35,462 nucleotides of DNA, taken from Clostridia bacterium. GTDB lineage: Bacteria > Bacillota > Clostridia > Christensenellales > CAG-314. The number at the start of each line of letters is the position of its first letter. Position 1 is the first letter of the stretch. Below the pieces are notes generated by a model that was not told the origin of the DNA, did not search any database, and worked only from the letters and a program-made list of their open reading frames with translations. The DNA lies in assembly GCA_017500905.1 (NCBI GenBank), contig JAFVXX010000114.1:1-35462 (forward strand). Direction: 5' to 3'. Shown here piece by piece: positions 4,423 through 22,848 of the stretch. The position numbers and the translations under genes are program-made.

Positions 4423-4768
4423 TGGTGGAGATGACGGGACTTGCACCCGTGTACCAACGCAAGACCATCAAGCTTTCTACGTGTGTAGACTTGTTTGTAA
4501 CGTCACGCAGTAGCCAAACGGTCAAAAGCTACTACGCCAAGATTGTAAAGGTTTGCTACAAGCATACAATCATTTGCAAGCAGCTATTCGCAATGTCTGG
4601 CGCCACTTTTACGCCTTGCGAAGCAACGTAAGGTGACGCGCTGGCTAATTAGGCAGCGTATGCGTAACTATTGTTAGCGTTTAAATTTAGGTTTTGCCTT
4701 TTTACGAAGCTGCACTTCGACACGCTTACTCAACCATCATTACACTGGGCGAATCTAAAAACATCCCC
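4423..4768 (-). ncRNA. ssrA: transfer-messenger RNA (tmRNA, SsrA)
   Basis: Minus-strand RNA of 346 nt. The 5' end is GGGGATGTTTTTAGATTCG and the 3' end is ACGGGTGCAAGTCCCGTCATCTCCACCA. The acceptor stem GGGGATG/CATCTCC contains the G3:U70 alanine identity pair. The internal tag ORF is GCT AAC AAT AGT TAC GCA TAC GCT GCC TAA, giving ANNSYAYAA followed by a stop, the typical ...YA(L/Y)AA degradation tag. Confidence 0.9.
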
Positions 4769-8013: not shown

Positions 8014-8059
8014 AAAAAAGGCCGTCAACGGATAGTTTTTCCGTTGACGGCTTGCTTTT
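8014..8059. terminator. bidirectional terminator between convergent genes
   Basis: An 11-bp stem gccgtcaacgg (8021-8031) / ccgttgacggc (8041-8051). An A-run precedes it and T-rich sequence follows it. It serves the RNA-ligase gene (+) and the 8064 gene (-). Confidence 0.8.
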
Positions 8060-8063
8060 GTGA

Positions 8064-9128
8064 TTAGCTTGAATAGGCAATAGCAAACTCCATATAGGTA
8101 CTGCCACTTACCGTAAAGTAGTAGGTTGTAGATGCCGTAGCAGTAAATGTGATGGTGCCGTTTGCTTGCATTGTAGATACAAGGTTGGTCATTGCCCTGT
8201 CGGAGTAGACGCTTACAACCAAGCCTTCTGCACGTGCAGTTGGCGTAAACACAACCGTGCCGTTGGACTTTGGCGCAATCTTGAAGTACACAGTTGTATT
8301 TGCAGTATCCACCTTGCCCTCCAACACTTGACCTACGTAGGTGTGGATAGCATTGTTTGCATTTGTACCCAATACAACTGCACTTTCGCCCGTTTCGCAA
8401 TCGGCGGGACTAATTGGAGCAAAGGTTTCGGGATCAAGTCCCGGTGTTTTTGTAAGCAAAGTTCCTGCCATACTGTTGGGATACACTGCGCTTTGCGCCG
8501 AGCCCAGCACCGTCTTCATTGCAACCCAACGATATTCCGTCTTTCCCGTTTCGCCATCCACTTGTGGAAGGTACTCCAAGCGAGTACGGTAAATTGGGTA
8601 AATGCGTGTACCCGTTGGGTAGTTAAATCCGGAAGTATCCCACAAACCACCCGTTGTACCAAACTCTACGCCGGTAGTAAACAAATACTTGACGTTTGGC
8701 GTGTCGTGTGGCGAGTAAATCAAAAACTCCAATCCAATTGCTTCGGTACCAAACAAGGCCTTCATTTGGTTGCTTGTCCAAAAGTCCATGCTACCAAACA
8801 CGTAGTAGCCCCTGTCGGTACGGTTTTCTATTTGTTGGTTGATTTCCGAGGTTGGCGTGTTTAGTCCAATGCCTACAGTTTGACCACTTTCCTCCATTGT
8901 GCCGTTTAGGATGTTGTCAATCAGCAGACGGTGGTTGTTTCCGTTTTCGTCGTCGGGCAAAATTTCCGAGCCTTCCCACGGGAAGGACTCTATTTTGACA
9001 CCTTCGCCCAAAACGTGCGTGGCGTCGCCCGTTGCGTAGCTCCAGGTGGCCTGCACCCCTACTACCGAGCAAACAAAAATGACAGCAAGCAAAAGCACTG
9101 TCAATTTTTTTGACGTACTACTAAACAT
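8064..9128 (-). CDS. secreted protein C of the SipW-type operon (paralogous N-terminus, function unknown)
   Basis: Start set at the ATG at 9128, which is 8 nt after GAGGGGG; the track's GTG at 9137 lies inside the SD. The N-terminus is MFSSTSKKLTVLLLAVIFVCSVVGVQA|TWSYATGDA (V-x-A cleavage rule). The next block, FPWEGSEILP...NNHRLLIDNILN, is homologous to protein B. The C-terminal region is beta-rich. Confidence 0.75.
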   Translation of the reverse strand: MFSSTSKKLTVLLLAVIFVCSVVGVQATWSYATGDATHVLGEGVKIESFPWEGSEILPDDENGNNHRLLIDNILNGTMEESGQTVGIGLNTPTSEINQQIENRTDRGYYVFGSMDFWTSNQMKALFGTEAIGLEFLIYSPHDTPNVKYLFTTGVEFGTTGGLWDTSGFNYPTGTRIYPIYRTRLEYLPQVDGETGKTEYRWVAMKTVLGSAQSAVYPNSMAGTLLTKTPGLDPETFAPISPADCETGESAVVLGTNANNAIHTYVGQVLEGKVDTANTTVYFKIAPKSNGTVVFTPTARAEGLVVSVYSDRAMTNLVSTMQANGTITFTATASTTYYFTVSGSTYMEFAIAYSS

Positions 9129-9197
9129 TGCTGTCACCCCCTCTTTTTTACTGTAACTAAATTACTTTTTGCCTTTTACAGACACTATTATTTTGTT
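9022..9197. repeat. copy 1 of a 176-bp direct duplication
   Basis: About 90% identical by eye to 9734-9910. It covers the first ~35 codons of gene C, its SD, the intergenic spacer and a ghost copy of the last 11 codons of the peptidase gene (NKIIVSVKGKK-stop, 9162-9197). Confidence 0.9.
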
Positions 9198-9198
9198 G

Positions 9199-9840
9199 TC
9201 ATTGTGTTACTGTCGTAGTTGCGTTTGCCCACTTGGTTACGTCAACAGCCTTAAAGCTTTTGCCGTTGTAGGTAATGGTATCTACGGGTGCTTTGCCTGG
9301 ATAGGCAATGGTCGCCTTCCACTTGCCACTTTCGTAAACGATAACTGTTTTGTAGCAATCCACTATCGTGCCGTCTGCCACGCTAGAATTTTCTAACTTG
9401 TAGTAGGTATATGCAACCAATTGCGTATCCGAAACGTACTCTACGGCAAACTCTACGGCATCGGTTGATGCACTTTTTGGCAACATATTTTTTATGTTAC
9501 CACCCGTTGCGTGCTGCAATGCGTAAACTACACCTATGCCGTCCTCCAACAACAACTCTCTGATAAGTGGCTTGTGTGATGCGTTTAAGCCATAGCGTAG
9601 GTCGTTTACAATGATATCAATCATTTTTTGATGGTTTTGTCCAACTTGATCCATACCAACACCGGGCAAAACTTCTTCCACCGTGTACGAAAAAACGTTT
9701 AATCCCGTAGTAACGCCTGCCTTTTCGGTGTTAGCGTCGCCCGTTGCATATCTCCATGTGGCCTGCACCCCTACTACTGAGGAAACCAAAATGACAGCAA
9801 GCAAAAGCACTGTCAATTTTTTTGACGTGCTACTAAACAT
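9199..9840 (-). CDS. secreted protein B of the SipW-type operon (paralogous N-terminus, function unknown)
   Basis: Start set at the ATG at 9840, behind a GGGGGG/GTGA SD region. The N-terminus is MFSSTSKKLTVLLLAVILVSSVVGVQA|TWRYATGDA. The block FSYTVEEVLP...QNHQKMIDIIVND aligns with protein C. Confidence 0.75.
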   Translation of the reverse strand: MFSSTSKKLTVLLLAVILVSSVVGVQATWRYATGDANTEKAGVTTGLNVFSYTVEEVLPGVGMDQVGQNHQKMIDIIVNDLRYGLNASHKPLIRELLLEDGIGVVYALQHATGGNIKNMLPKSASTDAVEFAVEYVSDTQLVAYTYYKLENSSVADGTIVDCYKTVIVYESGKWKATIAYPGKAPVDTITYNGKSFKAVDVTKWANATTTVTQ

Positions 9841-9910
9841 TGCTGTCACCCCCCGCTTTTTTACTGTAACTAAATTACTTTTTGCCTTTTACAGACACTA
9901 TTATTTTGTT
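9734..9910. repeat. copy 2 of the 176-bp direct duplication
   Basis: Covers the 5' end of gene B, its SD and the genuine 3' end of the peptidase gene. It is offset 712-713 bp from copy 1, with one 1-nt indel in the C-run before the SD. Confidence 0.9.
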
Positions 9911-10915
9911 TTCCTTGGATTTGTCGCTCAACGTCAAATTGGAGTCCTGTCCGTTGGCAGCAAGCTGCTCCTCAGATACAAACTTGACGTGCACGTTGAG
10001 TGCATTGCCATCCAAGTTGACACGTGCAACAGGCTTGTAGGCGGTTGCCCTTTGCGTAGGGATTTTGTCCACCTTTAGACGCACTTTTTGAACAAGCTCG
10101 GCTGCAAGTTGCTTGTCTTGCTCGGTTGCATTTGGGCTTGTTGCAATTGTTGCAAGTCGCTCCATCTTGGCATTCCACAGCTTTTTGTCTACTGCAGGCG
10201 CAACAAACAACGCCACTGCAATAAGCAAAACACACAGGTATCCTGCCGGCGATTGCAAAAACATAATTAGGCTACCTACAAAAGGCACACGTTGATTTTG
10301 GTAGATGCCCTTCATTTGGCTGTAGCGCACAGGAAAACGGTCGGGGTTTTCCACTGCGTCACCCTGCAACAAAAAGTAGCGCTCGCTGTGATTTTCGTTG
10401 GGCTCCTCAATGCCAACGATACGGTGAATAACAAGTATTTCGCCCACTTCGTACACTACTACGTCGTACAGCTGTAGGTCCTCCTCTGCGGGAAGCTTGT
10501 GTACCAAAATTAGGTCAAACACTTGCAATTGATTGTCAACGCTGTCCTTGCCAAAAACGTGTTTGTTTTTTTCGTGCTTGTACGACATCGAGCCACTTTG
10601 CACCACCTGAAGCACAGGGGTAGAGCCAACCTTGTCTTTTCCGTTTACGTTGGATACCAAAGCAAAGCAAAATGCGCACAAAACTACTGCAAACAAGGCA
10701 ACGGAAACCACCCTGTCCACAATGGACAGGGTTTTGTTTCCGGATTTTTTACGGAATTTTTCGTATTCGGTTTTAATTTTTTCGTCTTCTGCGCCCGTTT
10801 TGATTAGACGTAGCGAAAGCTTGGCAATGTGGGCAATGCCCCATCCCAAAACTGCCGTAAGCAAAACAAAAACTATAAGACACAGTATAAAGACGTAAAC
10901 ATCAAATCCTTGCAT
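9875..10915 (-). CDS. signal peptidase I, SipW/archaeal-ER type (S26B-like), with extra N-terminal TM segment(s) and a ~100-aa C-terminal tail
   Basis: 346 aa. The catalytic-Ser box is VVQSGSMSY. This is followed by DLILVHK, VVVYEV..ILVIHRIVGIEE (the His box of Ser/His-type SPases) and LLQGDAVENPD (compare the GDNN..D box of SipW-type enzymes). TM segments lie near residues 5-30, 65-90 and 215-240, followed by a hydrophilic tail. Confidence 0.8.
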   Translation of the reverse strand: MQGFDVYVFILCLIVFVLLTAVLGWGIAHIAKLSLRLIKTGAEDEKIKTEYEKFRKKSGNKTLSIVDRVVSVALFAVVLCAFCFALVSNVNGKDKVGSTPVLQVVQSGSMSYKHEKNKHVFGKDSVDNQLQVFDLILVHKLPAEEDLQLYDVVVYEVGEILVIHRIVGIEEPNENHSERYFLLQGDAVENPDRFPVRYSQMKGIYQNQRVPFVGSLIMFLQSPAGYLCVLLIAVALFVAPAVDKKLWNAKMERLATIATSPNATEQDKQLAAELVQKVRLKVDKIPTQRATAYKPVARVNLDGNALNVHVKFVSEEQLAANGQDSNLTLSDKSKENKIIVSVKGKK

Positions 10916-10954
10916 AAAAAAATCTCTTCGTAAGTGTAATTGGTTGTCAAATTA

Positions 10955-11659
10955 TTAAATGTTCATCAAATCTGCAACCTTGCCCTTTTCACCAATGTTA
11001 AGCTTGAAGCTGGAAGCAGAAAGTGCTGTGTCAAAAGCCGTGTGCTTGGAGAAAGTGTCAAGCTTAAGTTGCGCACCGCCGTAGAAGGCAAAGAATGCGC
11101 CAAATTGCTCGCCTGTTACCGTCCAAGTAAAGGAGCCGTCTGCGTTTTTAGTAACTGTACCAATTTGGTTTGCTTCGGTTGCAGCTGCATTGGATACGCC
11201 GGTTGTCAAAACTGGAGAGTACAGTGTCACTTGTGCTGCAGCCGGATCACTTGCTACGGAGAAGATCTCCGTGCCTGCGTAGTTGCCCTTTGTAAGCACA
11301 ACGATCATTTCCATTGCAATACCGTTTTCAATGACGGTTTCGTCTGCACCAAGATTTGGTGTAAAGCTTACTTGAAGCTCGCCTGTGTAGTAAACTTCAG
11401 CAACGTAGTCACCTTGAGTTCCTGCAGGAACAGCGTTGCCTTCGCCATCCAAAAGGTCGTCTACCGAAATAGCCAACGTGTTGGAAACTACCTTGATGTT
11501 ACCCTTCAAGCTTGGTGTACCACTTACGTCTACAAGGCTTGGGTGTACCCACTCGGTCAAGTAAGTGTTGATGTTGCCCGTTGCATAGCTCCACGTAGCA
11601 TAAACGCCACCTACAATTAGGCACACTGCAACAAGCATCAATGCTGTAAATTTTTTCAT
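10955..11659 (-). CDS. secreted protein A of the SipW-type operon (same N-terminal motif, function unknown)
   Basis: 234 aa behind an AGGAGG SD. The N-terminus is MKKFTALMLVAVCLIVGGVYA|TWSYATGN. The mature part is rich in G/T/V/A and looks beta-rich. Confidence 0.8.
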   Translation of the reverse strand: MKKFTALMLVAVCLIVGGVYATWSYATGNINTYLTEWVHPSLVDVSGTPSLKGNIKVVSNTLAISVDDLLDGEGNAVPAGTQGDYVAEVYYTGELQVSFTPNLGADETVIENGIAMEMIVVLTKGNYAGTEIFSVASDPAAAQVTLYSPVLTTGVSNAAATEANQIGTVTKNADGSFTWTVTGEQFGAFFAFYGGAQLKLDTFSKHTAFDTALSASSFKLNIGEKGKVADLMNI

Positions 11660-11714
11660 TGTTAATCCTCCTGTTGAGATGGTTTATATTTTCCAAAACG
11701 GATAATATACTGTA

Positions 11715-11743
11715 ATTTTAGTACTAAACAATCAGTATGTCAA
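11715..11743 (-). promoter_or_regulatory. sigma-70-like promoter of the A-peptidase-B-C operon
   Basis: Minus strand: TTGACA (11743-11738), 17 nt, TAAAAT (11720-11715), about 55 nt upstream of the gene A ATG. It is embedded in AGTA(C/T)T half-sites. Confidence 0.55.
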
Positions 11744-11881: not shown

Positions 11882-12011
11882 GATATGGAATATTCCCCTA
11901 CGATTTGAGGTTGCTAAACCTTGTTGATGACAAAGGGTGCGTCAATGACGCCTGTCCCTACCATTAGATTGACAACAGCATGGTGTAGGGGGGCGACCAT
12001 TGGTCGTCCGT
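11882..12011. repeat. copy 1 of a ~130-bp direct repeat (REP/MITE-like structured element)
   Basis: Aligns with 12585-12712 with a handful of mismatches and a 2-nt G indel. It contains the GCGTCAaTGACGC palindrome, the inverted pair CCCCTAC...GTAGGGG and the terminal palindrome CGACCAtTGGTCG. Confidence 0.85.
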
Positions 12012-12025
12012 AAAAGCATAGTATC

Positions 12026-12226
12026 TCACACGTACAAATCCCTAAGCTCTACGCCCATCATCCTGGCAATTTTAAGCATTGGTACCACAAAGCGACACCT
12101 TTGCCTACAAAGGATTTTGTTCAAAACGTATTGAGATATATCGCACAATCTACAAAAATCCTTTTTGCTCAGCTTCTTTTCGTTAATATAAGTCAAAATT
12201 TTTTCTGTATTAATTTCACTTTTCAT
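12026..12226 (-). CDS. small HTH DNA-binding protein (Cro/CI-XRE-like)
   Basis: 66 aa behind a GGAGGAG SD. LSKKDFCRLCDISQYVLNKIL reads as helix-turn-helix, and the ...LKIARMMGVELRDLY tail is typical of HTH_3 proteins. Confidence 0.65.
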   Translation of the reverse strand: MKSEINTEKILTYINEKKLSKKDFCRLCDISQYVLNKILCRQRCRFVVPMLKIARMMGVELRDLYV

Positions 12227-12318: not shown

Positions 12319-12525
12319 ATGACGACACTATCTAAACGAATCAAAGAATTACGGATGGAAAAAGGTCTTTCGCAACCACAGCTTGCACGAGCAATTGGTT
12401 GCAGCAAAGGTCAAATCAGTTTTTGGGAAAACGGACTAAACGAGCCAAAGGCAAGCTACGTTGTAAAACTTGCCGATGTTTTTGGCGTGTCCACCGATTA
12501 CCTTTTGGGACGCATGGATTGGTAG
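12319..12525 (+). CDS. XRE-family HTH transcriptional regulator
   Basis: 68 aa. RIKELRMEKGLSQPQLARAIGCSKGQISFWENGLNEPKASYVVKLADVFGVSTDYLLG is a textbook HTH_3 (Cro/CI) domain. There is no SD, and AT-rich -10-like hexamers lie within about 15 nt of the ATG, so the mRNA may be leaderless. Confidence 0.9.
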   Translation: MTTLSKRIKELRMEKGLSQPQLARAIGCSKGQISFWENGLNEPKASYVVKLADVFGVSTDYLLGRMDW

Positions 12526-12584: not shown

Positions 12585-12712
12585 GATATGGAATCTGCCC
12601 CTACAATTTGAGGTTGCTAAACCTTGTTGATGACAAAGGGTGCGTCAATGACGCCTGTCCCTACCATTAGATTGACAACAGCATGGTGTAGGGGCGACCA
12701 TTGGTCGTCCGT
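12585..12712. repeat. copy 2 of the ~130-bp direct repeat
   Basis: See copy 1. Here the inverted pair is 9 bp: gcccctaca 12597-12605 with tgtaggggc 12687-12695. The palindrome GCGTCAaTGACGC is at 12642-12654 and CGACCAtTGGTCG at 12695-12707. Confidence 0.85.
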
Positions 12713-12785: not shown

Positions 12786-14537
12786 TTAGTCGTTGGTTTC
12801 TTCTTCAAAGGTTTGTTGCTTGTTGCTGTAATGGGTGTGTAGCAGCTTGTGCGCAACCTCGCTGTTTGGCTCGCCCAAAAAATCGGCGTACAGCGTCTTG
12901 ATTTGTGGGTTTTCGCAGGATACACGGATTGCCTTGTTGCGATCAATGTTGCGAAGCCCCTCCTTGCGCATTGCAATTACGTCCTTTTGCTCGTAAAGCT
13001 TGTTGATGGGTTGGCCACCACCGTTGATACAGCCCTCGGGACAAGCCATAATCTCGATTGCATCGTAGTGTACACGGCCTGCCTTTACGTCCTCCAGCAC
13101 CTTGCGTGCGTTGGCAAGACCACTTACTACGCAAAGATGAAGCTTGACGTCATCGCCCAAGCTTACGTACGCTTCACGGGTGTTGTGAGCGCCAAATACG
13201 CCGTGGTACTCCACTGCCTTAGGCACTTGTCCCGTCATCCAAAGGGATGCCGTACGTACTACTGCTTCCATTACGCCACCACTGTTGCCAAAGATATCTG
13301 CTGCGCCTGTGGATGCGCCAAGAGGATCGTCAAATTGGCCGTCCGGCAGGTTTGCAAGGTCATCAATACCACATCTGCGCATAAGCTTTGCTACGCACTT
13401 TGCAGACATTGCAAAGTCGGTGCCGTGCATGCCGTCAAACATGCCCTCTTCACGTTTAAGCTCCTGCTTTTTGGCAATGCAAGGCATCAAGGATGCCACC
13501 ACCATGTCCTTTGGATCGATGCCTGCCTTTTGCGCAAAGTAGGTTTTGGCAATTGCGCCAAACATTTCTTGTGGAGATTTGCAGGTGGATGGAAGGTTTA
13601 GAAGCTCGGGGAATTGTGTTTCTACAAAGCTGATCCAACCGGGGCAGCAGGACGTAATTAGTGGAAGGTTTTTGCCCGATTTAAGTCTTGATACAAACTC
13701 GGTTGTTTCCTCCATGATGGTTAGGTCGGCTGCAAAGTTGGTGTCAAACACCTTTTTGAAGCCCATCATGCGTAGGGCAGTAATCATTTTGCCCGTAACG
13801 TTGGTGCCGGGAGCCATACCAAACTCCTCACCCAAGGATACTCTTACGGCAGGCGCCGTGTTTACAATTGCGTACTTGGTTGGGTCGGCAAGGATTTTTT
13901 CCAAGGTACGGGTGTCGTCTATTTGTTGCAAAGCGCCCGTTGGACACACTTGCACGCATTGTCCGCAGTTGACGCAATCGTGAGGCAAAGATATTTTTGT
14001 GCCAAAGCCACGGTTGGTTGCCGAAATTGCACCCACCGATTGCACGTGGTCACAGATGGCAATACACTTGCCACACAAAATACACTTGCTGGCATTGCGA
14101 CGCAACGAGCCCTCGTCCACGTCGACGTTTTCTTGCGACATTGGTCCCGTTATGTACAGCTTTTTGATGCCCAGCTCTACCGAAAGGTCTTGCAGCTCGC
14201 AGTTGCCACATTTGCCACACGTCAAGCAGTCGTGAGGGTGGTCGGACAACAGCAACTCCACAATGGTGCGTCTTTCACGACGGACACGCTCGCTGTGGGT
14301 ATATATTTCCATTCCGTTTGCTACGTTTGTCGAGCAAGCAGGCACAAGATTGCGTCTACCCTTTACTTCGACAACACAAACACGGCAGGATGCAGGCTTG
14401 TGCTCAAGGTCTACCTCTTCCTTCATCATGTAGCAAAGGTTTGGTATACGGATTCCGTGCTTTTTGGCAACTTGCAAAATTGTCAAAGAGGAATCTTCTT
14501 GAAACTCCATGTTGTTTATTTTGACGTTTACTAACAC
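12786..14537 (-). CDS. hydA: [FeFe]-hydrogenase catalytic subunit (HydA/HndD type)
   Basis: 583 aa, GTG start behind AGGAGG. It has an N-terminal 2Fe-2S ferredoxin-like domain and multiple CxxCxxCxxxC clusters. The H-cluster motifs are TSCCPGW, MPCIAKKQE and EIMACPEGCINGGGQP. Confidence 0.95.
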   Translation of the reverse strand: MLVNVKINNMEFQEDSSLTILQVAKKHGIRIPNLCYMMKEEVDLEHKPASCRVCVVEVKGRRNLVPACSTNVANGMEIYTHSERVRRERRTIVELLLSDHPHDCLTCGKCGNCELQDLSVELGIKKLYITGPMSQENVDVDEGSLRRNASKCILCGKCIAICDHVQSVGAISATNRGFGTKISLPHDCVNCGQCVQVCPTGALQQIDDTRTLEKILADPTKYAIVNTAPAVRVSLGEEFGMAPGTNVTGKMITALRMMGFKKVFDTNFAADLTIMEETTEFVSRLKSGKNLPLITSCCPGWISFVETQFPELLNLPSTCKSPQEMFGAIAKTYFAQKAGIDPKDMVVASLMPCIAKKQELKREEGMFDGMHGTDFAMSAKCVAKLMRRCGIDDLANLPDGQFDDPLGASTGAADIFGNSGGVMEAVVRTASLWMTGQVPKAVEYHGVFGAHNTREAYVSLGDDVKLHLCVVSGLANARKVLEDVKAGRVHYDAIEIMACPEGCINGGGQPINKLYEQKDVIAMRKEGLRNIDRNKAIRVSCENPQIKTLYADFLGEPNSEVAHKLLHTHYSNKQQTFEEETND

Positions 14538-14554
14538 TTTTAATTCCTCCTTTG

Positions 14555-16456
14555 TTACTTTTTGATTGCCTTTGGCTTAGCAGGACACTTGCTTACGCAT
14601 GCGCCACACTTGACGCACTTGTCGGGGTTGATTGCATATGCATTAAGTCTTGCATTTGCGCCTGTTTTGTCGGTACGGTAAATTGCGTTGGTTGGGCAAT
14701 TACGTGCGCACAAGCCACAGCCAAGACACAAATCGGTGACGATTTCGTAGTTGAGCAAGCTACGGCAGGAGCCTGCAGGACATTTTTTGTCTACGATGTG
14801 GGCAACGTACTCGTCCCTAAACTCCTTCAGGGTGGACAGCACGGGGTTGGGGGCAGATTGTCCCAAAGCGCACAATGCGCTGGATTGAATGGTTGTTGCA
14901 AGGTTTTCCAGCTCAAACAGGTCGTGCATTTCGCCCTTACCCTCGGTGATTCGGTTGAGTATTTCCAACATACGCATGTTGCCTATACGGCATGGCGTAC
15001 ATTTGCCGCACGACTCCTCTACGGTAAACTCCAAGTAGAACTTGGCAATGTTTACCATACAGTCGTCCTCGTCCAGTACAATCATACCACCACTGCCCAT
15101 CATGGAGCCTTTGGCAACCAGGCTGTCGTAGTCAACGGGGGTGTCAAGGTCCTTTTCCGAAAGGCAACCACCACTTGGGCCACCCGTTTGTACAGCCTTA
15201 AACTTTTTGCCGTTGGGTATGCCACCACCAATGTCGTAGATGATTTCACGCAAGGTAATGCCCATTGGCACCTCTACAAGGCCACCGTTGTTTATTTTGC
15301 CTGCCAATGCAAACACCTTGGTACCGGTAGATTTTTCCGTACCGATGCTTGCAAAGTTGGACGCACCGTTTAGCAAAATGTAGGGGATGTTTGCCCAGGT
15401 TTCGACGTTGTTTACGTTGGTTGGCTTGCCGTACAAGCCCTTTTCTGCAGGAAAAGGAGGCTTCAAGGTTGGCTCGCCACGCTTGCCCTCGATGGAGTGA
15501 ATAAGCGCTGTTTCTTCGCCACAGACAAATGCGCCTGCGCCGTACTTAATCTTGATGTTGAAGCTAAATCCCGTGCCCATGATGTTGTCGCCCAAAAGGC
15601 CCATTTCGGTTGCTTGCTTGATGGCAATACGCAAACGCTTGATGGCAAGTGGGTACTCGGCACGGATGTAGATATAGCCCTCGTCGGCACCAATTGCGTA
15701 ACCGCAAATTGCCATGGATTCTAGCACCGAGTGTGGGTCGCCCTCCAAAATGGAGCGATCCATAAATGCGCCCGGGTCGCCCTCGTCGGCGTTGCAAATC
15801 ACGTACTTTTTCTTGCTTTTTGCATTTTTGGCAAATTTCCACTTCAATCCCGTTGGAAATCCTGCGCCACCACGACCACGAAGTCCCGATGCCGTAACAA
15901 CCTCAATTACTTGGTCGGGTGTCATATCAAACAAAGCCGTAGCCAATGCTTGGTAGCCCTTGGCAGCAATGCTTTCGGCAATTTCCTCAGGGTTGATTAG
16001 TCCACAATTGCGCAACGCAATGCGGTTTTGCTTTTTGTAAAAGTCGATGTTTTCTTGCGTAAACACACGCTCGCCGTTGTTGTTTTTGTACAACAAGTGG
16101 TTGATTACGTCGTGACTACATACGTGACGACGGATGATACGCTCGGTTTCTTCTACAGTGACCTTTGTGTAAAAGGTGTGGTCGGGGAAAATCTTTACTA
16201 TTGGTCCACGCTCGCAAAAGCCAAAGCAGCCTGTAATTGCCACCTCTACCTTGTCCTCTACGCCGTACTCCTTTGCCCAATGCTTCAAGGATTTTACAAT
16301 TTCCTCCGACTTGGAGGACATACAGCCTGTGCCACCACAAACGGAAATATGGTACTTTTCGGGCTTTTCCTGCAAGGTGGTGCGTTTTTCAATTAGCTCC
16401 TTTACGTTGTCATACATGGTAAGGAGTTGCTCTTTAGATGTAATTTTTGTACACAT
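14555..16456 (-). CDS. hydB: NADH-binding flavoprotein subunit of bifurcating-type hydrogenase (NuoF-like, HydB/HndC)
   Basis: 633 aa. The N-terminal thioredoxin-like 2Fe-2S domain contains CGGTGC...CFGFC. The NuoF FMN/NADH core contains GRGGAGFPTGLKW. The C-terminus carries a 2x[4Fe-4S] ferredoxin (CLGCGLCARNCP, CVKCGACVSKCP). Confidence 0.95.
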   Translation of the reverse strand: MCTKITSKEQLLTMYDNVKELIEKRTTLQEKPEKYHISVCGGTGCMSSKSEEIVKSLKHWAKEYGVEDKVEVAITGCFGFCERGPIVKIFPDHTFYTKVTVEETERIIRRHVCSHDVINHLLYKNNNGERVFTQENIDFYKKQNRIALRNCGLINPEEIAESIAAKGYQALATALFDMTPDQVIEVVTASGLRGRGGAGFPTGLKWKFAKNAKSKKKYVICNADEGDPGAFMDRSILEGDPHSVLESMAICGYAIGADEGYIYIRAEYPLAIKRLRIAIKQATEMGLLGDNIMGTGFSFNIKIKYGAGAFVCGEETALIHSIEGKRGEPTLKPPFPAEKGLYGKPTNVNNVETWANIPYILLNGASNFASIGTEKSTGTKVFALAGKINNGGLVEVPMGITLREIIYDIGGGIPNGKKFKAVQTGGPSGGCLSEKDLDTPVDYDSLVAKGSMMGSGGMIVLDEDDCMVNIAKFYLEFTVEESCGKCTPCRIGNMRMLEILNRITEGKGEMHDLFELENLATTIQSSALCALGQSAPNPVLSTLKEFRDEYVAHIVDKKCPAGSCRSLLNYEIVTDLCLGCGLCARNCPTNAIYRTDKTGANARLNAYAINPDKCVKCGACVSKCPAKPKAIKK

Positions 16457-16465
16457 AGTTTCCTC

Positions 16466-16933
16466 CTAATACTGAGCAATGATGCTTTCCACGTCTTCGG
16501 GCGTGATGTTGCCGTAGGTTTTGTCGTTGATTTGCAACACGGGCGCAAGTCCACAAGCACCAACGCAACGCAGGGTTGTGATGGTAAACTTGCCATCGGC
16601 AGTCGTTTGACCGTTTTTGATGCCAAGTATTTGCTCGACTCGTTCCAAAATTTTGTCCGAGCCACGAACAAAGCACGCCGTGCCCATGCAGATACTAATT
16701 ACGTATTCGCCCTTTGGCTCCATGCTAAAAAACGAGTAAAAGGACACTACGCCATACACCTTGGATACGTTGATACCCAGCTTGCGTGCCACGTGCGCCT
16801 GTACTACCATGGGTAGATAGCCAAAAATTTCTTGCGCACGGTGCAAAATGGCAATAAGCTCCTGCTCGTCGCAATTGCACTCCTGCTCGATAAACCGGTC
16901 CAGCTCGTTAAACATTTCTTCGTTTGTTCTCAT
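16466..16933 (-). CDS. hydC: NuoE-like 2Fe-2S subunit of the hydrogenase (HydC/HndA)
   Basis: 155 aa with a thioredoxin-like ferredoxin Cys pattern (ICMGTACFVRG ... LRCVGACGLAPV). AGGAGG SD. It is the first gene of hydC-hydB-hydA. Confidence 0.9.
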   Translation of the reverse strand: MRTNEEMFNELDRFIEQECNCDEQELIAILHRAQEIFGYLPMVVQAHVARKLGINVSKVYGVVSFYSFFSMEPKGEYVISICMGTACFVRGSDKILERVEQILGIKNGQTTADGKFTITTLRCVGACGLAPVLQINDKTYGNITPEDVESIIAQY

Positions 16934-16982
16934 AAAGAGTCTCCTCCTAAAAATTACTGCTTTTCAAGCAAACGCTGCTTTT

Positions 16983-17011
16983 ATTTTACCAAAGTTGACA
17001 CACAGTGTCAA
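16983..17011 (-). promoter_or_regulatory. hyd operon promoter with an overlapping perfect palindrome
   Basis: Minus strand: TTGACA (17011-17006), 17 nt, TAAAAT (16988-16983). The -35 is one arm of the palindrome TTGACAC-aca-GTGTCAA (16995-17011). Confidence 0.5.
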
Positions 17012-17065
17012 TATAAGCAGATTTTATTTTACCCAATCTTTACATACCAAATTTTTATGACAACA

Positions 17066-17096
17066 TAAAAAAAGACAACGCACGGATGCGTTGTCT
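17066..17096 (-). terminator. rho-independent terminator after hppA
   Basis: Stem agacaacgca (17073-17082) / tgcgttgtct (17087-17096) with loop cgga. A T-run follows on the minus strand. Confidence 0.85.
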
Positions 17097-17119
17097 TAGT
17101 TTTAGTTGTTGTTGTCCAA

Positions 17120-19210
17120 TTAGAACAAGCTTGGGAAAGCCTCAATTACGCCTGCAAATACAATTGCAACGATGGACAAAAGCTTGATCAAGATGTTGAT
17201 AGCTGGACCAGAAGTATCTTTGAATGGGTCACCAACTGTATCGCCAACGACTGCAGCCTTGTGGCAATCGCTACCTTTACCGCCGTGAGCACCCTTTTCG
17301 ATGTACTTCTTAGCGTTGTCCCAAGCGCCACCGGCGTTGGACATCATTACTGCAAGCATAAAGCCGGATGCGATTGCGCCAAACAACATACCTGTTACAC
17401 CTGGAACACCAAGGATTAGACCAACTACGATTGGAGCAAGGATGGTGATTACCGATGGCAATACCATTTGCTTCAAGCTTGCCTTTGTGCAAAGGTCTAC
17501 GCAAGAGTGGTAGTCAGGCTTGCCTGTACCTTCCATAAGGCCGGGGATTTCCTTAAATTGACGACGTACTTCTACTACGATGCTTTGAGCAGATTTGCCA
17601 ACAGAAGACATTGTCAATGCGCTGAATAGGAATGGAAGCATGCAACCAATGAAAGCACCAATTAGTACTTGTGGGTTCATGATGGACAAATCTATAGAAG
17701 TTGTGTCTACCAAGTTGATGAAGGAGCTTAGCAATGCAAGTGCAGTGAGTGCTGCCGAGCCAATTGCAAAGCCTTTACCTGTTGCAGCTGTTGTGTTGCC
17801 AAGGCTGTCCAATGCGTCGGTACGTTCACGAACGTATTCCGGCATACCGCTCATTTCGGCAATACCACCGGCATTGTCTGCGATAGGACCATATGCGTCG
17901 GTTGCAAGTGTGATACCAAGAGTAGAAAGCATACCAACTGCTGCTACACCAATACCAAAGAAGCCCATTGTACCTTGACCACAGATTAGGTAAGATGCAA
18001 TTACTACTGCAGATACGATAACTACAGGGATAACTGTGGATACCATACCAAGTGACAAACCGGAAATGATTGTTGTTGCACTACCTGTTTCGGTGCTACC
18101 TGCAAGATTTTTGGTTGGTTTGCTGTTGTCGGATGTGTAGTACTCGGTGAAGTAACCAATAAGCACACCGCCAAGAAGACCTGCAACCATGGCAACTGCC
18201 AAGAACCACCAATCAATGTTTACAAGCAAAATAAATGCTACGGATGCAACTGCTGCCAAGATACTTGCAATGTAAGTACCCTTACGCAATGCTGCAAGCA
18301 AGGATTTGGAAGAAAGATTTTCGCCTGTCTTTACAAAGAAGGTACCAATCAAGGATGCAACTACACCGATTACTGCAATTGCGACAGGAATCAACAAGCC
18401 CCAAACTGCCTTATCTGGCTCTGCAGCAAAGTACTCAGACATTGCTGCGTAGCCAAGTGCAACGGAGGATAGAAGGCTACCTACGTAGGATTCGTACAAG
18501 TCTGCACCCATACCGGCAACGTCACCAACGTTGTCGCCTACGTTGTCTGCAATAACAGCAGGGTTACGTGGGTCGTCCTCGGGGATACCTGCTTCGACCT
18601 TACCAACAAGGTCTGCGCCAACGTCTGCTGCCTTTGTAAAGATACCACCACCAACACGTGCAAACAATGCCATGGAGGATGCACCAATACCAAAGGTAAC
18701 CATTGCGTTGGTCAAAGCTGCGTATTCCAAACCAAATGCGTACTTGGTCAAGAAGTACCAGATGGAGAAATCCAACAAACCAAGACCTACTACTGTAAAG
18801 CCCATTACGGAACCAGCCTTGAAAGCAACCTTCAAGCCGCTGTTTAGAGACTTTTCTGCTGCGAAAGCTGTACGAGAGTTAGCTGTTACGGCAATATTCA
18901 TACCTACAAAGCCTGCCAAACCGGAGAAGATACCACCGGTTAGGAAAGCAAATGGGGTAAACTTGCTAACAAGCTCCAATCCCGGAACAAATGCAAGTAC
19001 CAACAATACTACAAACACTGCAGCAAAGAAAACGCCTACTGTTTTGTATTGTCTTTTTAGGTATGCGCTTGCACCCTTACGGATGGAAGCAGCAATTTCT
19101 TTCATTTTGTCTGTGCCTTCTGGAGCCTTTTTGACGCCATAGGCTGCAATAAGTGCGTAACCTAACGCCAAAATAGCAGCGATAGGAGCAATTATCATGA
19201 AAATTTCCAT
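17120..19210 (-). CDS. hppA: membrane-bound ion-translocating pyrophosphatase (K+-dependent subfamily signature)
   Basis: 696 aa with about 16 TM segments. Signature blocks are GDNVGDVAGMGADLYESY and DTVGDPFKDTSGP. GNTTAATGKGFAIGSAAL carries Ala at the known K+-dependence determinant, where K+-independent enzymes have Lys. Confidence 0.95.
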   Translation of the reverse strand: MEIFMIIAPIAAILALGYALIAAYGVKKAPEGTDKMKEIAASIRKGASAYLKRQYKTVGVFFAAVFVVLLVLAFVPGLELVSKFTPFAFLTGGIFSGLAGFVGMNIAVTANSRTAFAAEKSLNSGLKVAFKAGSVMGFTVVGLGLLDFSIWYFLTKYAFGLEYAALTNAMVTFGIGASSMALFARVGGGIFTKAADVGADLVGKVEAGIPEDDPRNPAVIADNVGDNVGDVAGMGADLYESYVGSLLSSVALGYAAMSEYFAAEPDKAVWGLLIPVAIAVIGVVASLIGTFFVKTGENLSSKSLLAALRKGTYIASILAAVASVAFILLVNIDWWFLAVAMVAGLLGGVLIGYFTEYYTSDNSKPTKNLAGSTETGSATTIISGLSLGMVSTVIPVVIVSAVVIASYLICGQGTMGFFGIGVAAVGMLSTLGITLATDAYGPIADNAGGIAEMSGMPEYVRERTDALDSLGNTTAATGKGFAIGSAALTALALLSSFINLVDTTSIDLSIMNPQVLIGAFIGCMLPFLFSALTMSSVGKSAQSIVVEVRRQFKEIPGLMEGTGKPDYHSCVDLCTKASLKQMVLPSVITILAPIVVGLILGVPGVTGMLFGAIASGFMLAVMMSNAGGAWDNAKKYIEKGAHGGKGSDCHKAAVVGDTVGDPFKDTSGPAINILIKLLSIVAIVFAGVIEAFPSLF

Positions 19211-22526: not shown

Positions 22527-22603
22527 TGGTGGAGACAGCAAAACTCGAATTTGCGACCCCTTGCATGTCAAGCAAGTACTCTAACCAACTGAGCTATGCC
22601 TCC
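22527..22603 (-). tRNA. tRNA-Val (anticodon GAC), CCA encoded
   Basis: The minus strand reads GGAGGCATAGCTCAGTTGGTTAGAGTACTTGCTTGACATGCAAGGGGTCGCAAATTCGAGTTTTGCTGTCTCCACCA. The acceptor stem is 7 bp, the anticodon stem is CTTGC/GCAAG with loop TTGACAT, and the T-loop is TTCGAGT. Confidence 0.9.
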
Positions 22604-22772: not shown

Positions 22773-22848
22773 GCCCTCATTGTCTAGAGGCCTAGGACGC
22801 CGCCCTCTCACGGCGGAAACAGGGGTTCGAATCCCCTTGGGGGTACCA
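22773..22848 (+). tRNA. tRNA-Glu (anticodon CTC), CCA encoded
   Basis: GCCCTCATTGTCTAGAGGCCTAGGACGCCGCCCTCTCACGGCGGAAACAGGGGTTCGAATCCCCTTGGGGGTACCA. The anticodon stem is CCGCC/GGCGG with loop CTCTCAC, the T-arm is AGGGG-TTCGAAT-CCCCT, and the D-arm GTCTAGAGGCCTAGGAC is typical of tRNA-Glu. Confidence 0.9.

Follow-up and report, generated by a model that had tools for sequence, protein, structure and literature searches.

What is a signal peptidase gene doing in the middle of an operon for secreted proteins that match no Pfam or NCBIfam family? The question is raised by contig JAFVXX010000114.1 of a Clostridia bacterium placed in the Christensenellales (assembly GCA_017500905.1), whose 35,462 nucleotides (nt) are here called the window. 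Four co-oriented open reading frames (ORFs) on its minus strand, with short gaps between them, encode a cargo protein that we call A, the peptidase, and two further cargo proteins, B and C (Table 1). A first reading of the bare letters, here called the original prediction, had proposed these ORFs, a single promoter in front of them, and a peptidase gene flanked by cargo genes that have a signal ending of their own in common. The positions and lengths of the ORFs and the place of the promoter were confirmed, and many species keep the cargo-peptidase-cargo layout. We consider the cassette to be, with a probability of about 0.65, a self-contained secretion-processing unit in which a near-consensus housekeeping promoter drives A, the peptidase and the B/C genes.

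All three cargo proteins have a Sec-type signal peptide that ends G-V-x-A↓T-W-x-Y-A (the arrow marks the cut, which for the cassette is predicted). The N-termini read as they had been quoted, ...VGGVYA↓TWSYATGN in A, ...VVGVQA↓TWRYATGD in B and ...VVGVQA↓TWSYATGD in C, and have an MKK or otherwise basic n-region, a hydrophobic core of about 13 residues, a Gly-Gly break and V-x-A. The general form of the ending is [ST]-[VI]-G-G-V-[YF]-A↓[TS]-W-x-[YF]-[AS]. Position frequencies were counted on 67 unique A and 137 unique B/C N-termini, anchored on the Trp as position 0, and gave the consensus MKK-LSLLIAL.L..T-[VI]-G-G-V-Y-A-T(73%)-W-x-Y for the A family and [KR]-hydrophobic core-[ST]-V-G-G(77%)-V-[YF]-A-[TS]-W-x-Y for the B/C family. 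In the A family positions -4, -3, -2, 0 and +2 are V, Y, A, W and Y in 97, 97, 97, 96 and 91% of the sequences; in the B/C family they are V, Y or F, A, W and Y in 77, 59, 85, 87 and 80%. G17, G18, V19, Y20, A21, W23 and Y25 are invariant in A proteins that are about 30% identical elsewhere. Cleavage is predicted after V-x-A, which puts Tyr or Phe at P2, the second residue before the cut, and Trp at P2', the second residue after it. In two metagenome-assembled genomes (MAGs) from the human gut labelled 'uncultured Bacilli' (L034, L036), Phe replaces the motif Trp in both cargo genes, GGVYATF(N/D)Y, and it appears that the two cargo signals of a genome change together.

The motif and the peptidase travel together. 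In a survey anchored on the peptidase, species-representative genomes were scanned, 276 stretches with a relative were found and 80 loci were fetched. The cassette is accordingly present in at least 276 stretches, nearly all from MAGs of the ruminant, bird and human gut, with labels such as Christensenellaceae, Ca. Scatosoma, Acutalibacteraceae, Faecousia, Eubacteriales and Clostridia. Clustering placed an A-type gene directly upstream of the peptidase in 75 of the 80 loci; in 68 the direct downstream neighbour is of the B/C type, and the motif is present in nearly all of these genes. Several of the loci without one or the other end near the cassette. A strict regular expression for the motif matched 93 of the 3248 ORFs in these loci, all of them on the peptidase strand and directly flanking it, and the loci that it missed carry variants (GGVYAAW.Y, GGVYAVW.Y, GGVYATF.Y). 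A second survey was anchored on the motif, with a DNA pattern for GGVYATWxY searched in a metagenome collection. It matched 40 stretches, 27 with the motif in a signal-peptide context and 13 at unrelated internal or non-coding places, and the peptidase was adjacent in all 17 signal-context stretches that had enough flanking DNA. The motif recurs far beyond chance, and the expectation that it would lie beside a SipW-type peptidase in relatives is borne out by both surveys. Direct word-indexed homology searches were shallow (24 matches for A, 7 for B), and the breadth of the families emerged only from the peptidase-anchored loci and from an exhaustive search with C. Among the papers searched none joined SipW and Christensenellaceae, and the 'SipW-dependent' usage in them concerns Bacillus.

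The peptidase matches the NCBIfam model TIGR02228 (sigpep_I_arch) with an expectation value (E) of 2.1e-13 and 50.4 bits (curated cut-off 51.85), and the SipW model NF046067 with E 4.7e-13 and 49.1 bits (equivalog cut-off 190). In an alignment of 24 sequences, 43-81% identical to the window enzyme, Ser109 (SGSM), His164 (HRIV), and Asp186 and Asp192 (GDAVENPD) are invariant, and His164 occupies the place of the Lys found in P-type enzymes. The original assignment to the Ser/His type, made from the SGSM, HRIV and GD..ENPD boxes, is upheld by these residues and by model scores that are significant, though below the curated cut-offs. A homology search returned 1662 matches at E<=1e-3. Among the best 120, each of at least 279 bits, none carries a precomputed Pfam domain, and the named ones are almost all 'hypothetical protein'. 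We treat the enzyme, on its sequence features, as a divergent Ser-His(-Asp) peptidase of the S26B type, probably SipW-like in mechanism and forming a distinct subfamily.

Hydropathy gives the peptidase three hydrophobic segments, at residues 6-24, 69-87 and 224-242, of which the first is an extra N-terminal transmembrane segment relative to SipW. The loop at residues 32-64 has 10 Lys/Arg residues and the tail 19, and the catalytic region is net acidic; the catalytic domain is predicted to be held by segments 69-87 and 224-242 on the outer face of the membrane. The Lys-rich cytoplasmic loop is conserved (L.R.GAEDEKIK.EY, with Gly41 and Asp44 invariant), it is not known from SipW-type enzymes, and its role may be in regulation or docking. 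Hypervariability marks the cytoplasmic C-terminal tail, which in some species is about 300-600 residues long, with internal repeats. Long-tailed peptidases (P0045, P0054, P0060, P0102, and L121 241-1188) reach total lengths of up to about 576-843 amino acids (aa). Their tails consist of repeated modules of about 100 aa, KGKTLNAYI...YPMRVKVSSDRQ..W, for which Pfam gave no match.

How does the signal ending compare with that of TasA, the substrate of SipW? The SipW-cognate signal model TIGR04088, run on the N-termini of A and of B with a limit as loose as E<=10, gave no match, and TasA as a positive control scored 38 bits against a cut-off of 19. Since the model recognises TasA and misses A and B, the motif is by this test a new class, and the original view that it stands outside the TasA/camelysin class holds. 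The full-length cargo proteins likewise had no NCBIfam match, TIGR04088, TIGR04089 and TIGR04090 included. There is nevertheless a likeness at the cut itself. The TasA sequence was checked against PDB entry 8AUR, where the mature chain starts at residue 28, which gives the site T-W-A↓A-F. When the A family was aligned to TasA with hhalign, the sole aligned stretch was the signal end, with VGGVYA↓TWS in register with VGGGTWA↓AFN, in an alignment that is not significant (probability 4%, and 0.9% for the B/C family); in the body of the protein hhalign showed no similarity of either family to TasA. The predicted cassette site has, as TasA has, an aromatic residue at both P2 and P2' and Ala at P1. 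An aromatic P2' is reported to make cleavage by Escherichia coli LepB inefficient; LepB is also blocked by the Trp that TasA has at P2, and the enzyme that processes TasA is SipW, an archaeal-like peptidase (PMC10269814).

The likeness to TasA does not extend to the cargo proteins, and their membership of the TasA/camelysin family was rejected on Pfam, NCBIfam, hhalign and Foldseek results. Pfam PF12389 matched none of A, B and C at E<=1. Among 24 A-family members it gave one noise-level match (E 0.8), and it was not among the 25 most frequently matched families, of 42 in all, for 68 B/C members. The top 50 Foldseek matches of the C model were PPC domains, GH43 enzymes, the botulinum haemagglutinin HA70 and Clostridium perfringens enterotoxin (CPE), with no TasA entry; a comparison with the TasA jelly-roll had been suggested at the outset, and no such fold was found for the models of A or C.

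The cargo proteins had been described as three paralogues. This description stands for B and C and falls for A, which shares with them only an N-terminal module of about 40 residues. In the window the likeness of A to B and C is confined to its first 35 or so residues, and hhalign aligns the A and B/C families only over the first 41 columns, that is the signal peptide and the motif (probability 96.7), which led us to reject A as a paralogue of B/C. B in turn resembles C, in the window, only over the first 79 residues. However, C matches the B-type proteins of about 205 aa in the 80 loci over residues 8-215, with 28-31% identity and E from 1e-7 to 1e-10, which makes B and C distant relatives within a single downstream family. 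Its members come in sizes of about 205, about 230 and about 320-360 aa; full-length homologues of B (about 205 aa) lie downstream of the peptidase in some 25 loci, and the C family has 109 cluster representatives in 1.84 billion proteins. Most species carry one B/C gene, and the window strain two. By sequence, then, the cargo forms two families with one common N-terminal module.

Mature A is predicted to be a protein of 213 aa and 22.3 kDa, free of Cys, rich in beta-strands and with an isoelectric point of 4.26. Its AlphaFold model, built from 24 sequences, is beta-rich and has a mean predicted local distance difference test score (pLDDT) of 79.7. Residues 1-28 are disordered in the model (pLDDT <50), residues 22-35 range from <50 to about 66, and this would be compatible with a free N-terminal arm for donor-strand exchange. 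Foldseek of the model against the PDB gave nothing at E<=0.001 (best target TM-score 0.11), the viral fold library BFVD gave no match, and a profile search of PDB sequences nothing meaningful. The C model is better (pLDDT 91.4, predicted TM-score 0.84). Its C-terminal domain matches 3jqw, 5sv5, 1nqd and 4hpk in Foldseek with probability 1.0, target TM-scores of 0.56-0.67 and root-mean-square deviations (rmsd) of 3.0-4.4 Å. Pfam PPC (PF04151) matches 7 of the 68 B/C-family members (best E 3e-4) and gives nothing at E<=1 for the window C itself. The domain recurs as repeats in larger proteins, and the C-terminal modules are variable across the B/C family.

We propose that the A and B/C families enter the Sec pathway by their short signal peptide, MKK and a core of about 13 residues, and that its ending is cut after V-x-A, where the aromatic P2 and P2' would resemble those of T-W-A↓A-F in TasA. 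Ordinary Ser-Lys signal peptidases would handle such aromatic-flanked sites poorly, and for this reason the cassette enzyme is the likely releasing step. The cassette would thereby repeat the SipW/TasA trick with a different motif, a signal end that is refractory to the housekeeping enzymes and needs the co-encoded one. Released A would most likely build a polymer or a surface array, in either case an abundant structure outside the cell, and the variable B/C protein may be an accessory or adhesive component, given that C ends in a module like the PPC/collagen-binding domains. That A forms a polymer or an array outside the cell, together with a partner for adhesion or nucleation, is a tentative conclusion of our analysis, to which we give somewhat less than even odds. 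The fuller picture, in which A is the subunit of a new kind of filament or array with a fold that has no solved relative, is released by a private peptidase through GGVYA↓TWxY, and is decorated by B/C adhesins exchanged through the conserved junction, is a little more doubtful again.

The exchange of B/C genes is suggested by the DNA of the locus. Gene B is bracketed by a 190-nt direct repeat, 92-96% identical, each copy of which contains a peptidase 3' end, a ribosome binding site (RBS) and about the first 40 codons of a cargo gene, signal peptide included. The near-identical N-termini of B and C result from this recent duplication, and within the window they are not independent witnesses of the motif. 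A near-identical strain (L127, a 137-kb contig), with a peptidase 99% identical and DNA 97-98% identical, has a cassette of A, peptidase and C without B, and a single junction copy at its positions 10999-11181. Compared with this strain, the window has an insertion of 712 nt that consists of B and a second repeat copy. The junction seems to act as a recombination handle, by which B/C genes could be gained, lost and exchanged.

One might then ask if the shared N-terminus is a mere trace of this duplication in the window strain, with no functional link to the peptidase. Only the repeat that holds the N-termini of B and C favours such a view, which we find scarcely credible, as the motif is common to two otherwise unrelated families and is kept beside the peptidase, among proteins that share only 25-50% identity, both in the 80 genomes and in metagenome contigs independent of them; the surveys contradict this view. 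It is more plausible, although still improbable, that the N-terminal segment is retained and that A and B/C stay anchored in the membrane, with the peptidase-like protein serving as a chaperone or assembly factor like SipA/LepA of streptococcal pili. The whole N-terminal segment of the A family, hydrophobic core included, is unusually conserved, as pilin-type anchor helices are, and the peptidase profile weakly touches SipA (4n31) and LepA (4k8w) at E 0.7-0.9. These matches are not significant, though, and together with SEC11A and SEC11C (E about 0.7-1) they are all that the profile found in the PDB; the invariant Ser109, His164 and Asp186 argue for an active enzyme, and a core of only about 13 residues followed by the Gly-Gly break and V-x-A is the form of a cleavable signal peptide.

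A role in sporulation, for example as a component of the spore surface or an intermembrane one, we hold to be about as improbable. TasA was first found as a spore-associated protein, CotN, and in 13 of the 80 loci the cassette lies co-oriented among the spoIIGA-sigE and sigG-ylmC genes (examples of the sporulation-gene setting are L043, L073, L083 and L084, and also L001 10329-10871), in 6 beside spoVT. The window and most loci have, on the other hand, unrelated neighbours, and most A promoters are near-perfect sigma-A promoters and not of the sigma-E, -K, -F or -G type. Within 200 nt upstream at least 11 of the 12 sigma-A consensus positions are matched for 45 of 71 A genes (63%), against 11.4% of 490 control ORFs from the same loci, and all 12 for 22 of the 71 (31%), against 3.5% of the controls. 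These promoters sit 60-100 nt upstream and are followed by strong Shine-Dalgarno sequences, and cassettes within sporulation neighbourhoods (e.g. L043, L084) keep their own. Sporulation control was for that reason set aside in spite of the neighbourhood enrichment. A slightly fainter chance still is given to B and C being secreted toxins or lectin-like effectors with A as a companion, an idea that comes from the body of C, which distantly recalls HA70 and CPE with their elongated, aerolysin-like beta folds. Foldseek matches it to HA70/HA3 and CPE with E from 1e-4 to 3e-3 and probabilities of 0.8-0.99, residues 175-216 of the model form a long beta hairpin, and the C-terminal modules of the family vary, as noted. 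Yet the TM-scores of about 0.2 and the rmsd of about 22 Å make the fold match unreliable, the cassette is accompanied by neither an immunity gene nor a mobile context, and it is a conserved chromosomal cassette with constitutive-type promoters in hundreds of commensal species.

Some points weigh against the cassette as a secretion-processing unit with a structural product. The peptidase scores just under the cut-off of TIGR02228 and far under the equivalog cut-off for SipW, and the Pfam peptidase models (S24/S26) give no match to the window enzyme. We call the peptidase dedicated from linkage, and we likewise infer the exact cleavage site, the dependence on the enzyme, the abundance of A and the role as polymer or adhesin. 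A second cleavage site after W-x-Y-A is possible. The model of A, from only 24 sequences, has no structural likeness to known fibre subunits, and the conserved surroundings of the 80 loci include no cell-wall anchor, sortase signal or partner assembly gene.

The secretion-processing unit can be set beside several known systems. It shares with tapA-sipW-tasA of Bacillus subtilis the placing of an endoplasmic reticulum (ER)/archaeal-type signal peptidase gene between two secreted cargo genes, one cargo being conserved and the other more variable, and with TasA the Gly-Gly break, aromatic P2, Ala P1 and aromatic P2' of the signal end (VGGGTWA↓AFND against (V/I)GGVYA↓TWxY). It differs in the motif sequence, and in cargo without a match to PF12389, TIGR04088, TIGR04089, TIGR04090 or the jelly-roll (5OF1, 8AUR). 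The peptidase differs from SipW in the extra N-terminal transmembrane segment, the GAEDEKIKxEY loop and the hypervariable tail. The cassette is also without conserved regulators of the SinR/SinI type, and a fibre is here a proposal. In the sipW-bsaA-bsaB-bsaC operon of Clostridium perfringens a clostridial SipW-type peptidase is co-transcribed with secreted matrix proteins that are thought to be processed by it, and of these BsaA and BsaB, remotely homologous to TasA, form polymers through donor-strand exchange and isopeptide bonds (PMC11580942). There, however, the peptidase comes first, a vWA protein is included, and the families match none of A, B and C. The archaeal AbpA/AbpB bundling pili resemble the cassette in a Sec signal peptide cut by signal peptidase I and in a larger accessory protein encoded adjacently, and the AbpA subunit self-assembles outside the cell after cleavage (PMC9245690). 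AbpA is a TasA-like jelly-roll with no dedicated peptidase nearby, and A has no detectable similarity to it. With the PPC/collagen-binding domains of the clostridial collagenases ColG and ColH the last 100 or so residues of C superpose (target TM-score about 0.6, rmsd 3-4 Å), but this is one domain of one cargo protein, and collagen binding is not implied.

Table 1. Positions of the cassette, its control signals and its junction repeats in the window.
Feature	Positions	Strand	Basis or remark
Operon promoter, sigma-A type, TTGACA-17-TAAAAT	11715-11743	-	11/12 consensus positions match
Gene A, 234-aa precursor	10955-11659	-	ORF; conserved first cassette gene
A signal-end motif codons GGVYA↓TWSYA, residues 17-26	11582-11611	-	cut predicted after Ala21
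Signal peptidase I, ER/archaeal type (S26B-like), 346 aa	9875-10915	-	ORF, NCBIfam, invariant residues
Peptidase catalytic codons Ser109; His164; Asp186	10589-10591; 10424-10426; 10358-10360	-	alignment
Gene B, 213-aa precursor (from ATG), short form of the B/C family	9199-9840	-	ORF; mature about 186 aa
B motif codons VGVQA↓TWRYA, residues 23-32	9745-9774	-	ORF, position frequencies
Gene C, 354-aa precursor (from ATG), long form of the B/C family, a conserved N-terminal body followed by a C-terminal domain	8064-9128	-	ORF
C motif codons VGVQA↓TWSYA, residues 23-32	9033-9062	-	ORF, position frequencies
C C-terminal beta sandwich like PPC/collagen-binding domains, residues about 247-354	8067-8390	-	Foldseek; Pfam in relatives
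Junction repeat copy 1: remnant of peptidase 3' end, RBS, first about 40 codons of C	9016-9204		
Junction repeat copy 2: true peptidase 3' end, RBS, first about 40 codons of B	9728-9917		
Intrinsic terminator ending the operon	8021-8051	-	12-bp stem with 8 GC pairs, then T run

The terminator is bidirectional and shared with a convergent gene of the RNA-ligase family (PF09414, 7236-8012, plus strand), which follows the cassette also in the strain L127 and in L004, a syntenic locus from a different species with an A protein 66% identical. On the other side of the cassette lie two divergent small helix-turn-helix (HTH) genes of the XRE type (12026-12226, minus; 12319-12525, plus), with a 110-nt direct repeat on either side, the two copies being 97% identical (11882-11991 and 12585-12694). 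The original prediction had compared these genes with sinR and sinI beside tasA. They are present in L127 and absent in L004, where the gene of the membrane H+-pyrophosphatase abuts A, and the gene neighbourhoods of the 80 loci show no recurrent HTH family. The pair was therefore rejected as conserved regulators, and the analogy lacks comparative support. The repeats had no Rfam match and were not in the other loci examined, save both copies in L127 (about 91% identity); the HTH pair with its repeats may be a small insertion cassette. The long 5' leader and the surroundings of the HTH genes yielded no known RNA, riboswitch or other. Farther on, at 12786-19210 on the minus strand, are a three-gene cluster for an [FeFe]-hydrogenase (HydA-like 583 aa, NuoF-like 633 aa, NuoE-like 155 aa) that resembles the electron-bifurcating hydrogenases, and then the gene of the membrane H+-pyrophosphatase. 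The block of hydrogenase and HTH genes between A and the pyrophosphatase occurs only in the window lineage, as against the direct abutment in L004. The window also holds a tmRNA gene (4423-4768, minus; 132.5 bits) and tRNA genes at 22530-22603 (minus) and 22773-22845 (plus).

The cassette is a variant of a principle known from SipW with TasA and TapA, that of a dedicated ER-type signal peptidase and its cognate signal peptide. What is new is the motif, the modified architecture of the peptidase and the cargo, two families for which no relatives are known. The pairing of a private signal peptidase and a signal peptide that matches it reaches with this cassette beyond the TasA superfamily, and the aromatic P2/P2' signature may be a general mark of such pairs. 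The cassette also supplies a simple sequence rule for finding the substrates. For the predicted cleavage site in A the semi-tryptic peptide TWSYATGNINTYLTEWVHPSLVDVSGTPSLK is the expected signature. There is also a gap in annotation, as the named relatives are almost all 'hypothetical protein', yet the promoters of the cassettes are among the best in those genomes.

The accessory protein may vary between strains by a simple route, as the junction repeat suggests. The cassette as a whole points towards a component of the surface or matrix that is abundant in little-known gut bacteria, and that could bear on adhesion, aggregation and recognition by the host or by phages. If the proposal is true, a large uncultured clade of gut Clostridia would carry such a structure as a major feature of its surface.

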